Shown: positions 1-32,807, counted from the stretch's first letter. The stretch is DNA of 63,518 bases from Candidatus Thorarchaeota archaeon (GCA_019057475.1 DXJO01000013.1:1-63518); one strand, 5' to 3'. Notes: a model not told the origin generated them from the sequence alone. Made by a program: numbers and translations.

Positions 1-249
1 GTCGCCCCAGTAGACGTCAATGAACTCACCGTGCTTCTCGCAGGTCTTCTTGTACATGACCTTGCCGTCCTCTTCATAGAGGGTAGCATCTATCACATTT
101 ACTTCATCATGCTCCAAAAAGCACTCAGGGCAGATGGACTGCGTAGTGTACGGAAGCTCCTTTTCGGGATGTAGCTCAACATGGTATCTAGAAACATCCC
201 CATGAGTGAGCGGCTCTTCCGGAATTGGCTTTACTTCATCAGTTGCCAC
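1..249 (-). CDS. tes: Radical SAM protein, tetraether lipid synthase (Tes/MJ0619 family), N-terminal 83 aa, runs off the window
   Basis: Not in ORF track. GTG at 249 preceded by GGAG. Reads MATDEVK...LPYTTQSICPECF...IDATLYEEDGKVMYKKTCEKHGEFIDVYWGD, the CPEC...KTCxxHG N-terminal metal site of this family. The radical SAM core lies outside the window. Confidence 0.7.
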   Translation of the reverse strand, partial: MATDEVKPIPEEPLTHGDVSRYHVELHPEKELPYTTQSICPECFLEHDEVNVIDATLYEEDGKVMYKKTCEKHGEFIDVYWGD

Positions 250-362
250 GATTGTTCAGCTCCATAATAAGTTACCACCACTGAACAGGGTGGTATTACG
301 CGCAGAAACCTGAGTTTCTTGGATATAACCTTTATCCAATGGTTCAGAGTATGATGAGTGAA

Positions 363-689
363 TCATGCAGGGTGTTCTGAATCATCGAGCAATAGCACAT
401 AGCCGCGCTTAAAGCCACCCCGCGTCTGGTTCTTCTCCGCCCTCAGTTGATCAAGTTTTGCGCGACCAAGACCCCTTAGCTGAATCAGAGCATCGATGAC
501 TTCAAGGAGATCAACAATCTCCTCAGTTTCACCGGAAGAAAGAAGCTCCTCCGCCTCTTCAACAATCTTAGTTCGCATCAGCAGGTCCAGCTCGTCCTCT
601 AACGCGGTTCGTACTGTTGGTTGCGCACCCCTGGAGCGTATGATCTCAGGGATTCTATCACGCACTAGTTTCTCTCTCAATGAATACAC
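363..689 (-). CDS. MazG-like / all-alpha nucleoside triphosphate pyrophosphohydrolase
   Basis: KLVRDRIPEII and KIVEEAEE...EEIVDLLEV...EK...RGGF motifs. Confidence 0.85.
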   Translation of the reverse strand: MYSLREKLVRDRIPEIIRSRGAQPTVRTALEDELDLLMRTKIVEEAEELLSSGETEEIVDLLEVIDALIQLRGLGRAKLDQLRAEKNQTRGGFKRGYVLLLDDSEHPA

Positions 690-28995: not shown

Positions 28996-30795
28996 TCATT
29001 CAGAATCTTCAGTGTCCTTGTCATCCATGCTCGCGAGGATCTCGTCCATCTCATGGATGGCATCACCATCTGGGAACTCAGCATCCTCGCCAGCCTTTCG
29101 CTTGTCAACAGTTCTAGATATCGTCTTCTCAGTTTCGCTGTAGGCGGCCCATAGCTCCTTTATCGCGTCGTTACCAAAATCCTCAGCCCCTTCAGCCTTT
29201 GAGATATCATCTGCATATCCCGCGTCGTCATCAAGATAGCCAAGTATCTGATCAAGCTCTTCCACAATGGACAGCTCGACACTCTCAGGAGCATCATTCT
29301 CACCTTCGACGGGGATAACTTCGTCGGATGATAGTGCCTCAAGAGCTCCATCCACATCCTCGATGGTTGCCTTGTCCAGCTCAGCGGTGATTATGTCATC
29401 TGCATCAAGTACATCGGAGAGAAAATCTTTGGCAATTTTCAGGGTGGTTGTTTCTTGCTCATCAACCGTTGGGGTGGCTTCGATCTCTACCTCGCTGCGC
29501 TCCAGTTCCTCAAGCTCCTCGGAAAGAATCTCAACATTGATAGAACTGTCCTCAATTTTACCTGCTGGCTCAGCTGTAACCACATCAATCTCAAAGGCGA
29601 CTGGCATCTCGGATGGCTCAGACTCCGCTTCAGCGGCGACTACATCTTCAGGCTCTGCTACGACGGGGACTTCTTCCAGATCCTCAGATGCACTCACCGA
29701 CACCGTGACAATCTCGAACGTATCGGCGGTTGCATCAGCTTCAGCAGGCATATCCACAGGCTCCACGACATCTTCAATGATCTCATAGTCGTCAATGTCC
29801 TCTATGATGTTACCCTCTTCATCAACGAAGACCTCTTCTACGATCTCCTCATACTCCTCTTCTTCCTCGAATGTTTCAATTGCCTCTGTCTCTGCGGCTT
29901 CAGTGAATTGTAGAAGTTCGGATGCGGGCATGTCAGGGAGAACTACGCCGATATATTGAGCTGCTGCTGTCATCAGAATGCTAAGCATCTCATCCCGTCG
30001 ATTCTTGTCGATAGCCACCATGGGATACGTTGGGACTCCGAGGATTTTCCCCACAACCCCAGGTTTCATTGCATTCGGCAGATCCTGTTTGTTGGCCAGA
30101 GCGAACACGGGAACTTTGGGGGCATCTCGCCTTATCAGCTTGAGAATATCTCTGCTTATGATGACGTTGCGCAGACTTGAGTCGCAGACTAGAAAGATTA
30201 CGTCTGCCCCATGGAAGTAGAAGCGCCAGAGAGTCCGAAATCGCTCCTGCCCCGCAAAGTCCCACAAAACGAGCGAATAGTTCCCAAATCTAATGTTCTC
30301 AACAGTTTCCAGATTGAGCGCGATGGTTGGCACATACTGCAATGGGGGAGTTTCCCCGAGGAGAAGGTTCAGTGTTGTGGTCTTGCCAGTACCTCCTTCC
30401 CCGACTAACGCAATCTTCAGCCGGGTAATGACACAGGGCTCTATTAGTTTCTCGTAGGAATCAATGACTGCTTGGAGATCATCCTTCTTGAGCTTCCTTC
30501 TGAGAGCCTTCGCCGCAGTTTCGAGCTTGTTAGCTATGCCGCGTTCATCTTCTCTCTTGTCTGTCACGAAAACCAAGAGCGCGTCTTCGAGCCAATCAAC
30601 CGCCATGAATTTCATGTCATCGACTATCAGGGGCATCTCTGCGATATCGGCACCATGCGTTGTCTTGAGCTCCTCCCTCGTGGATAGGTACTCCAGCAGT
30701 TTTTCTTCAGGCAGTTCCACTGGCCAGTACTGCGTCGATGCAAGTACCTCTTTTGTCGAAATTCGGACCAGCAGAGTGTTGTGAATCATTGTCAA
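28996..30795 (-). CDS. Longin/roadblock-like domain + Arf/Rab-type small GTPase + long acidic tail
   Basis: GEGGTGKTT, YVPTI, WDFAGQERFRTLWRFYF, NKQDLPNAM; ~120-aa alpha/beta N-domain; ~300 aa rich in D/E. Confidence 0.85.
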   Translation of the reverse strand: MTMIHNTLLVRISTKEVLASTQYWPVELPEEKLLEYLSTREELKTTHGADIAEMPLIVDDMKFMAVDWLEDALLVFVTDKREDERGIANKLETAAKALRRKLKKDDLQAVIDSYEKLIEPCVITRLKIALVGEGGTGKTTTLNLLLGETPPLQYVPTIALNLETVENIRFGNYSLVLWDFAGQERFRTLWRFYFHGADVIFLVCDSSLRNVIISRDILKLIRRDAPKVPVFALANKQDLPNAMKPGVVGKILGVPTYPMVAIDKNRRDEMLSILMTAAAQYIGVVLPDMPASELLQFTEAAETEAIETFEEEEEYEEIVEEVFVDEEGNIIEDIDDYEIIEDVVEPVDMPAEADATADTFEIVTVSVSASEDLEEVPVVAEPEDVVAAEAESEPSEMPVAFEIDVVTAEPAGKIEDSSINVEILSEELEELERSEVEIEATPTVDEQETTTLKIAKDFLSDVLDADDIITAELDKATIEDVDGALEALSSDEVIPVEGENDAPESVELSIVEELDQILGYLDDDAGYADDISKAEGAEDFGNDAIKELWAAYSETEKTISRTVDKRKAGEDAEFPDGDAIHEMDEILASMDDKDTEDSE

Positions 30796-30999
30796 TCTTC
30801 ACCAGCTTAGGCGAGCAGAGGAGGTGAGTCCATTTTCCATTCAGGTCAGCCCACATGGCAATTAAACCTTTCACGGTTGAACCCAGAACCTCTTTGGCTG
30901 TATTATCGCGCTTCGTTGGATAATACCCAGGACTCTGTATATCCCTTGTCTGGTGCATTAGTTACAACTAATTATAAGATATCTAGGTCATATATTCGC

Positions 31000-31500
31000 T
31001 CAGCTTGTCAATGTGAAGACATGTATCTCAGGAGAATAAGAGAATCAAAAGGCGGAATTTGGAAGCAGAGGACTGCCGGGCCAAAGCCGCTTTAGAGGCA
31101 GGACCCCCTGCATCCGTGGAGCCGTTCTACCTAGGACACGGAAAATGCGCAAGTATTGGCCCTTCGCAAGGGACCAATCAAATGGGGACCATTTGCTAGA
31201 ACTCATTTGGGACCATGCATTGCGAATGCGAGTTCAATGACGGGGGGAACCGTGTACCCAGATTTCGGGCGAATTACCATCACAGTAAAGCAACATATGA
31301 GTCTTTCTGGTTTTCAAGATATGGAGCAGCGATTCCTGAATCGCTATTGCCTGAAGAAGGTGAATAGAGCCGTTCTGTCGGAGAATTTCACTGTCAGATG
31401 GATTAGAAGCTGGGCTAATCGTGGGTGCGCTATCGCGATGCCACTACGAGCTGGAATCAGTCCATAGTATCAGTGGGATGGCTACTGAAGCATTGCGATT
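31000..31500 (+). ncRNA. Candidate large (~450-500 nt) structured RNA of unknown class
   Basis: No credible ORF; TTATAAG at 30972; more than ten consecutive hairpins; six GGAC motifs and two GAGCCGTTCT modules. Ends and strand approximate. Confidence 0.5.
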
Positions 31501-31513
31501 TGGACATGAGAAC

Positions 31514-32653
31514 CTACCTTGGGAAGTTGTCCCTCAAAAGCCGTAGGTGTTGATGGACCATCTCACGTTGCGCGTCATCGTCAGGGTTCTGCTCAAGATT
31601 CACAATCAGGGTCTGTAGGAAGTATTCAGGGAAGAATAGTCTGACTCGGATGTCATTCAAAAGGAAAAGCCACTTATCATATTCTCCCGATGGCCCTTTC
31701 CTCCTCTTTTCTGAAACAACTCGATACTTCTTCAATGTCTGAGCGGCTTGTTTCAATTCCTTGGGAGGGATGCCCAAAGTTGCTTCAAGCTCGGAGATAT
31801 TCACAGGATGGCGTCTAAGAAGAGTTAGTGTGTCGTAACAATCGGGATCCGCGAGTATGTTTGAAACCGCGACTGTGTCATCAGGTGTCTTTTGCCACTC
31901 CGTGAGGAACTCAAGCACTTCACTCTTGTATTCAGCCGCTAGCTCCGGATCGAGAACTGAACTCGCCGCATCCATGGCAGTTAGTGGAGGTGCACGAAAG
32001 ATCTCTAAGTCCTTCACCAAGAAGATGCAGGTCCGTCCTATCTCATCAACCCATTCTGTCTTCACAAGACCTAATTCCTCGAAGGGTGCGATGATGGAAT
32101 CCACGCTTACGCTGGGGAGACCTGTGACCATCTTAAGCCACTCTTCGAGATTCTCTTTGGATATGCCGCCCTTCCAAAGCTTCGGGAATACCGCACGAGA
32201 AACCTCATCAGAAAAGAGACGAGCAAGACGAGACTCATCAGTCATTCCTGCAAGTCTGATTATTCTACGGTATGTGCTGTCAAGTTCAACCTGCAGTTCA
32301 GCATCAGTCATTGATATTACTGCGTTAGTGATTGGAGACACGATAGAGGTGATTGCTGCCTCGTAGACCTTGGGGTCCTCACCGGGGGTAAGCAGTAAGG
32401 AGATGCAATACTGTTCTTCCTCCCTCACAAGTCCAGTATAGTATGATGCAACATTGTATTCCTCGCCCCCGATTCGAATGCTCAGGGAGGCGAACCCTGC
32501 TGTGGCATCCCCCATGGCGTGTGATGTGAAGATGCGCATGATCTCCGTATTGAGATCTTCGCGGTAATAATCAGCAAAATCTCCTGGGACTTTCGCCTTG
32601 AGGACAGCCCCTATTTTCGAGTCCCAATCTATAAGCAACATCGCTACTGGCAT
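31514..32653 (-). CDS. uDENN/longin-like domain protein with C-terminal winged-helix domains
   Basis: N-terminal LIDWDSKIGAVLKAKVP pattern typical of uDENN-type longins; HTH-like ISELEATLGIPPKELKQAAQTLKKYRVV. Confidence 0.6.
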   Translation of the reverse strand: MPVAMLLIDWDSKIGAVLKAKVPGDFADYYREDLNTEIMRIFTSHAMGDATAGFASLSIRIGGEEYNVASYYTGLVREEEQYCISLLLTPGEDPKVYEAAITSIVSPITNAVISMTDAELQVELDSTYRRIIRLAGMTDESRLARLFSDEVSRAVFPKLWKGGISKENLEEWLKMVTGLPSVSVDSIIAPFEELGLVKTEWVDEIGRTCIFLVKDLEIFRAPPLTAMDAASSVLDPELAAEYKSEVLEFLTEWQKTPDDTVAVSNILADPDCYDTLTLLRRHPVNISELEATLGIPPKELKQAAQTLKKYRVVSEKRRKGPSGEYDKWLFLLNDIRVRLFFPEYFLQTLIVNLEQNPDDDAQREMVHQHLRLLRDNFPR

Positions 32654-32807
32654 GGTCTTTTTCTCCGGTCCCTAAGCGGCTGGCCATTTTGGAGTGGTCC
32701 GGTATCGTTTCCGAGTGCTTGACTAAAAAAGCTTGTCACTATTCACTTCGCGATTCAGCAGAGAACAAACGAGTAAAAGTCACTTAGTAATATGCTCGTA
32801 ATACATG

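Follow-up and report, generated by a model that had tools for sequence, protein, structure and literature searches.

A candidate family of structured small RNAs beside an Arf-like GTPase gene in Candidatus Thorarchaeota

The question raised by this locus is what is encoded between two minus-strand genes, one for an Arf-like GTPase and one for a protein designated P379, that flank a gap at 30796-31513 of the window (the whole stretch of DNA analysed, 63,518 nucleotides from Candidatus Thorarchaeota archaeon GCA_019057475.1, DXJO01000013.1:1-63518). A preliminary description, made from this stretch alone, had recognised the gap, whose size of ~700 bp is confirmed, and had proposed that it encodes a structured non-coding RNA without a known family. 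Comparison with relatives' genomes, which were deposited Candidatus Thorarchaeota MAGs, leaves little doubt that the gap holds a real conserved structured RNA, and that part of the proposal is upheld by conservation, covariation and a negative Rfam search.

The predicted RNA lies on the same strand as both flanking genes (Table 1). P379, encoded upstream, shows a weak ArsR-like winged helix at residues 262-318; an RNA-binding family was looked for in this protein and not found. Further matches to P379, at 23-31% identity, occur in ten genomes (G007, G013, G016, G017, G019, G021, G022, G025, G100, and G101) and are probably paralogues. Among the P379-like genes of those genomes, the RNA follows the orthologue only. 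The probable start codon of the GTPase gene is ATG 30789, which has a Shine-Dalgarno sequence (GGUGA) directly 5', rather than at the TTG at 30795.

Distribution and identity of the RNA

Five congeneric genomes could be aligned across the whole gap with 80-91% identity, including a near-invariant block at ~31055-31270 with more variable flanks. Seven further genera matched in the core only, always between the orthologues of P379 and the GTPase. Two covariance models were used, R1 for the core (76 positions) and R2 with 144 positions. R1 gave exactly one match per genome in 68 of 86 family genomes, representing 12 of 16 genera, and the family survey contained just two non-syntenic matches, both weak. 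Recognisable divergent forms were located 3' of P379 in the genera missed by R1; the RNA is kept in every Thorarchaeota genus searched, in canonical or divergent form. R2 matched in 29 of 32 family genomes; of 69 Thorarchaeota loci fetched independently, it detected the RNA in 62, at a distance of 95-400 nt 3' of P379 and in the same orientation. The R2 match in the window (31261-31119, minus strand) scored 102.5 bits, and the element is single-copy in the window genome. Outside the family, R1 yielded only two marginal, non-syntenic matches. When 119 genomes representing 24 further families of the phylum were searched with R2, nothing reached E ≤ 0.01. The sister family f2 lacks both the RNA and the GGGAC box of the P379 leader.

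A cmscan search of 30000-32500 against Rfam 15, on both strands and with E up to 10, returned a best E of 6.7, as the expectation of no match in the preliminary description had it; the best matches reached 12-16 bits against family thresholds of 34-117 bits. SRP RNA, RNase P RNA, and 5S rRNA, also as divergent forms, were rejected as identities because canonical copies lie elsewhere in the genome (SRP RNA on C54, 95 bits; RNase P RNA on C42, 172 bits; 5S rRNA on C18, 61 bits), and 5S rRNA was also found in five relatives. The SRP RNA copy (G000 C54:119886-120193) scores just below the Rfam gathering threshold of 96.5, and standard annotation may overlook it. A MITE or other repeat was dismissed on the single copy in the window genome and the one match per genome across the family. 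The ORF at 31156-31467 is non-coding, as had been supposed: indels of 1, 2, and 7 nt within the genus fall in the conserved block and the helix substitutions are compensatory, which speaks against a small protein gene, and a Pfam search of the gap ORFs gave no match. Nothing relevant was found in the literature on Asgard and Thorarchaeota ncRNAs. As judged from these genome comparisons, the RNA is a genuine new lineage-specific structured RNA family, undescribed before.

Architecture, covariation and strand

The fold consists of a closing helix, P1, of 16-25 bp that opens into a multi-helix junction with invariant C-rich strands, together with P2, a variable P3, P4, and a U-tract. An unconstrained minimum-energy fold of 31272-31036 (minus strand) reproduced P1, P2, P3, and P4. 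The invariant unpaired segments are CCCCGUC (J1/2), CACGGUCCCA (P2 loop), GCAUUGGUCCCC (before P3), and CUUGCGCAU (J3/1). P1 is formed by long-range pairing of the segment before the linker, which is U-rich in the RNA sense, with the segment beyond the CCCCGUC strand; its sequence differs in every genus and its complementarity is always kept. In genera g2 and g12 the entire P2 stem is swapped for other complementary sequences, and P3 is a hairpin in every genus, differing in sequence and length. The stems of P4 across lineages include GGUUCGCC/GGCGAACC, GGGGUUC/GAACCCC, GGCCAC/GUGGUU, and GGGAC/GUCCC (rows of A6). The extra hairpin of g1 (Table 1) looks from its sequence as if the GGUCCC-CAAU segment had been duplicated locally. 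The RNA showed no recognisable k-turn and no other protein-binding motif of a known kind.

Table 1. Features of the locus, in window coordinates unless a locus (L) is named
Feature	Position	Strand	Evidence or remark
599-aa protein with Arf/Roc-type G domain	28996-30795	minus	Pfam Arf E = 5e-21
Predicted RNA transcript	31040..31270	minus	ends inferred from promoter spacing and U-tract
U-rich tract CCUUUUGAUUCUCUUAU	31036..31052	minus	U-runs after P4 in all genera; probable termination region
P4, GC-rich 3' hairpin	31065..31111	minus	pairing kept, sequence lineage-specific
Linker UCCACGGAU	31112..31120	minus	family consensus GCUCCACGGAUGC; CGGA invariant in A3
P1 3' strand (CCGUGU, CCUAGGU, GGC)	31121..31141	minus	as for P1 5' strand
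J3/1 ACUUGCGCAUUUU	31142..31154	minus	near-invariant CUUGCGCA; columns in A3 and A4
P3 hairpin, variable arm	31155..31178	minus	contains GGUCCC 31170-31175
Extra hairpin CAAAUGG-UCC-CCAUUUG with third GGUCCCC	31179..31195	minus	genus g1 only, no variation
P2 hairpin, stem GAACUCG/UGAGUUC	31199..31235	minus	loop with invariant CGGUCCC-type motif, GGUCCC 31209-31214
J1/2 UUCCCCCCGUCAUU	31236..31249	minus	invariant CCCGUC; invariant columns in A3 and A4
P1 5' strand (GCC, AUCUGGG, ACACGG)	31250..31270	minus	test of cognate against non-cognate strands; compensatory changes
BRE/TATA-like box AGAAAG-ACTCATATG	31294..31308	minus	family consensus AGAAAGCTTCATATG
IS insertion in G004	L005:502-1501, equivalent to window 31307-31316		10-bp target duplication CTGGTTTTCA
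P379, 379-aa gene	31514-32653, ATG at 32653-32651	minus	no Pfam family
Candidate target, GGGACC fused to Shine-Dalgarno GGAG of P379	32663..32672	minus	complementary to (C)GGUCCC of the RNA
Convergent ORFs of g4, g6, g10, and g12	L043:332-1306, L036:310-1359, L065:750-1784; L090 about 200-520		

Six GGAC sequences had been noted on the plus strand (31070, 31101, 31134, 31171, 31186, and 31210) and all six are present, but on the RNA strand the motif reads GUCC or GGUCCC and GGAC occurs 0 times. GUCC is present there in 6 copies against 1.25 expected (mononucleotide shuffles, p = 0.002). Two GGUCCC/GUCC motifs are universal; the six copies are peculiar to the window genus and other genera have 2-4, so that the multivalency formerly proposed is a lineage-specific trait, with extra copies in some genera only. 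Genus g9 contains four GUCCC copies. The universal GGUCCC(C) preceding P3 is single-stranded and just 5' of P3 in other genera; one GGUCCC copy of the window genus is within the P3 stem, and some other genera have GUCCC in the P3 loop.

Covariation among Thorarchaeal homologues, anticipated in the preliminary description, is strong. In the MAFFT alignment A3, double changes were observed in 13 of 18 pairs of P1 and P2 and filled 101 cells; shuffling gave 35 ± 7, and none of 500 shuffles came as high. Of all cells 85.5% were paired, compared with 23-54% when the partners were slid. The model-fitted alignment A5, which leans towards the model, gave double changes in 15 of 17 pairs and 160 cells against 40 ± 8, and here too none of 500 shuffles did equally well. 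Compensatory changes were present in every P1 pair tested and in 7 of 9 pairs of P2. Cognate P1 strands paired at -30.6 kcal/mol compared with -18.6 ± 5.2 kcal/mol for non-cognate strands (permutation p = 5e-5, RNA strand), and in 15 of 18 lineages the cognate partner was the best-ranking one. RNAalifold on the MAFFT alignment recovered five P1 pairs, all with compensatory changes, and no P4 consensus, a poor recovery because arm and length classes differ. Single-sequence folding was better than that of shuffles, but only modestly so (z = -2.2 on the plus strand; -1.3 over 30980-31500 on the minus strand; -1.8 for the exact minus-strand RNA). The real support for the RNA is comparative.

These comparisons also rearranged the stems first drawn. 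The series of back-to-back stems can be drawn locally, but several are not conserved pairings: neither the CCGTG/CACGG nor the ACGG/CCGT stem is conserved, and CACGG instead pairs over long range with CCGTG at 31250-31254 to form P1. The GCAG and GCAGG hairpins do not stand as two stems and were retained as one nested hairpin, P4. The stems AGCGATTC/GAATCGCT, GTGAA/TTCAC, and ATGGATT/AGTCCAT and the repeat of GAGCCGTTCT are not part of the conserved RNA and show little conservation even among congeners, and the extent of 31000-31500 contracts to a conserved element at ~31040-31270 (31308 with the box). Other pairings considered and rejected for lack of conservation were the long-range CGCAUCCGU/GCGAAUGCG pairing given by RNAalifold on the plus strand, the local hairpin CCGUG/CACGG in RNA form, and the hairpin GCAUU-GCG-AAUGC in the P2 loop, which is lost in g5. 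Three candidate tertiary pairings (J1/2 CCGU(C) with linker (G)ACGG; J3/1 CGCAU with linker AUGCG; J3/1 with the P2 loop) had few compensations or inconsistent ones, and a 20-bp P1 would preclude them sterically.

The RNA is very probably encoded on the minus strand, opposite to the plus-strand transcription of the preliminary description, which was rejected on wobble-pair statistics in P1, P2, and P4. Three variable positions of P2 flanking the invariant core are G-C, A-U, or plus-strand A-C, equivalent to minus-strand G-U, and at this edge 30 such cases were counted against 0 of the reverse kind. Across the minus-strand alignment G-U numbered 72 against 30 A-C, and within P2 28 against 6. 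In 47 of 58 sequences the P1 duplex had its greater stability as minus strand (p = 2e-7), and for P4 this was so in 50 of 62. P1 of the window, whose 3' strand is at 31121..31141, has two G-U pairs; read as plus strand, these would become A-C mismatches. Whole-molecule folding energy did not discriminate between the strands. The inner P2-loop hairpin, with a G/U-rich loop, folds better on the plus strand, a preference attributed to base composition, and the candidate J3/1-linker pairing, if real, has variants that would be G-U when read as plus strand, which counts slightly against the minus strand. The reversal of the plus-strand reading by wobble-pair statistics indicates that strand assignment from hairpins alone is unreliable.

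Transcription, candidate target and competing explanations

The RNA is more probably than otherwise an independent transcription unit. Transcription would start near G31270 and stop at the GC hairpin P4 and the U-tract near 31040, the latter being a probable termination region from its sequence. In all genera the BRE/TATA-like box is better conserved than any other flanking motif; it reads AGAAAG-C/A-YTCATATG and lies 30 nt from P1 in the window and 26-45 nt in other genomes. It resembles the boxes 5' of the 5S, RNase P, and GTPase genes of this genome, and its distance of 30 nt to G31270 is the same as at the 5S gene. A scan for sigma-70-type promoters and terminators produced nothing useful, the scanner models not being applicable to archaea. 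The TTATAAG at 30972 formerly suggested as the promoter is set aside, since the RNA is very probably on the minus strand; the supposed plus-strand promoter of other genera falls at the promoter position of the GTPase gene.

The spacer between the P379 stop codon and the promoter-like box is poorly conserved. Within it lies a hairpin, AGCGAUUC-AGGA-AUCGCU (31330-31349), that is partly conserved within the genus and, going by its sequence and place, could be a 3'-end structure of the P379 mRNA. In G004 an IS element of ~1 kb, carrying a 304-aa DDE-transposase-like ORF, is inserted between P379 and the box, directly upstream of the latter, and both box and RNA are intact. On the other side, a convergent ORF of 325-370 aa ends directly after P4 in g4, g6, g10, and g12, where it either separates the RNA from the GTPase gene or stands in that gene's place; the RNA must therefore end there and is not a leader of the GTPase gene. 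The C-terminal motif of this ORF gives the impression of an acetyltransferase (GNAT).

A candidate target is present in the leader of P379, which reads GGGACC-GGAG-N10-ATG (32651-32672, minus strand). A GGGAC box adjoins the P379 Shine-Dalgarno sequence in 49 of 61 loci and 11 of 16 genera, and 6-7 nt of the RNA, (C)GGUCCC, match GGGAC(C/U)(G) of the leader. The chance that a conserved leader hexamer would match one of ~40 invariant hexamers of the RNA was estimated at 1-4%. The full-length duplex of leader and RNA was not better in energy than those with shuffled leaders (mean z = -0.74). A wider GGGAC-box regulon was considered and rejected: P379 is the sole genome-wide match to GGGACY(N0-1)GGAG(N7-14)ATG, a control pattern having matched twice, and GGGACC is not enriched upstream of start codons generally (enrichment 0.76). 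A box like that of P379, AGGGACTTGGGAG-N7-ATG, precedes a 240-aa ORF with no Pfam match elsewhere in the genome (G000 C43:16430-17175, L102) and could, by this resemblance, mark a second target. In genera g4, g12, and g13 the leader box is missing, although the RNA with its GGUCCC motifs is present; control of P379 is thus not the sole selected function.

The most likely function for the RNA is that of a regulatory or protein-bound small RNA. The reading preferred here, at a probability of roughly 0.4, is a stand-alone gene for a structured small RNA of ~230 nt on the minus strand, with its own BRE/TATA box, that acts as a riboregulator. The exposed, single-stranded invariant C-rich segments (CCCCGUC, the two GGUCCC, and CUUGCGCAU) would form the working surface, and the RNA would act in trans, its GGUCCC pairing with G-rich sites. 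The prime candidate site would be the GGGAC(C/U) box at the Shine-Dalgarno sequence of P379, the gene just upstream, where pairing would occlude ribosome binding on the mRNA. Base-pairing control of P379 in particular is a tentative and somewhat doubtful proposal. The invariant junction strands and the long rod helix suggest another character, such features being commoner in RNAs that are catalytic or bound by protein than in simple sRNAs that pair through a seed. The RNA may, with about the same reservation, be the subunit or scaffold of an RNP in which proteins bind the junction strands and both GGUCCC motifs, P1 serves as a rod-like handle, and the likeness to the P379 leader box is incidental or due to a shared protein. 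A universal, single-copy, class-wide RNA with an invariant single-stranded junction and freely covarying helices would fit this, as would its persistence with its motifs where the leader box is missing and the extra GUCCC copies in loops of variable hairpins of some genera; however, the neighbouring P379 has only a weak ArsR-like winged helix, and neither a known protein-binding motif nor an Rfam family speaks for it. That the RNA is a regulatory or RNP partner dedicated to a eukaryote-like small-GTPase module (longin/winged-helix P379 and the longin-Arf-like GTPase) is improbable; it would then close a feedback loop on P379 or serve as the RNA subunit of the module.

The remaining explanations attach the RNA to a neighbouring transcript or to the other strand. 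Its constant position 95-400 nt 3' of P379 on the same strand, and the complementarity of the P379 leader box, would suit a 3' UTR element or a processed RNA derived from the 3' UTR of the P379 mRNA, acting in cis through a 5'-3' GGGAC-GGUCCC contact or on stability. This is still less probable, given the conserved BRE/TATA-like box at a fixed distance from P1, the poorly conserved spacer between stop codon and box, and the IS element that parts P379 from an undamaged RNA and box in G004. The layout, a multi-helix junction joined by invariant strands with a hairpin and U-tract after it, is riboswitch-like, and in most genera the GTPase gene follows 110-270 nt 3' on the same strand; a cis-acting leader of that gene, with the junction as aptamer and P4 and the U-tract as terminator (riboswitch or attenuator), was nevertheless rejected as very unlikely on the convergent ORF after P4 in the four genera. 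Moreover, a conserved promoter box, GAAAGGTTTAATT (30871-30859, minus strand), serves the GTPase gene itself. Alternative pairings occur in some lineages (GCAUCC/GGAUGC in g5), and an antiterminator pairing conserved across genera was not found. The sponge of the CsrB/RsmZ kind put forward in the preliminary description, considered here as a plus-strand RNA whose GGGAC or GGA loops would titrate a translational repressor that also binds the P379 ribosome-binding box, is scarcely credible. It could draw on the same-sense GGGAC beside the P379 Shine-Dalgarno sequence, on plus-strand junction strands that are purine-rich like those of typical functional RNAs, on the inner P2-loop hairpin, and on a T-rich stretch 3' of the element on the plus strand. 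Yet wobble statistics favour the opposite strand, and the supposed promoter coincides with that of the GTPase gene in other genera; just two motif copies are universal, and a CsrA homologue (PF02599) was not found in this 96%-complete genome, in a search with positive controls.

Comparison with known systems

To our knowledge, very few structured ncRNAs have been described from Asgard archaea beyond the universal ones, and we know of no RNA component for any GTPase-longin system. The new family is usable in annotation, R2 having given no false positives in the 119 outgroup genomes. Furthermore, an RNA beside P379 and possibly complementary to its ribosome-binding site offers a testable hypothesis of RNA-level control of a eukaryote-like trafficking module.

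RsaE/RoxS and S. aureus RNAIII are small RNAs of Firmicutes with C-rich seeds, which RNAIII presents in UCCC loops. The Thorarchaeal RNA would like them be a stand-alone small RNA, with a predicted promoter of its own and a predicted hairpin and U-tract terminator, and its repeated C-rich motifs, conserved and unpaired, could pair with a G-rich ribosome-binding sequence. It differs in coming from archaea and in its far greater size, with P1 of 16-25 bp closing an invariant multi-helix junction, and shares no sequence or structure homology with them; furthermore, a single candidate target was found, and its box is missing in three genera. With CsrB and RsmZ it has in common a short motif repeated with hairpins, the motif or its complement being present at a Shine-Dalgarno region, but the motif is GUCC rather than GGA, with two universal copies, in a compact junction rather than a string of hairpins. 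In contrast to SRP RNA, 5S rRNA, bacterial Y RNA, and 6S RNA, whose models it does not match, it is limited to one archaeal family or class. It resembles all four in being single-copy and lineage-conserved with a predicted promoter of its own, and in that its 5' and 3' regions pair as a long helix closing a junction with invariant unpaired nucleotides.
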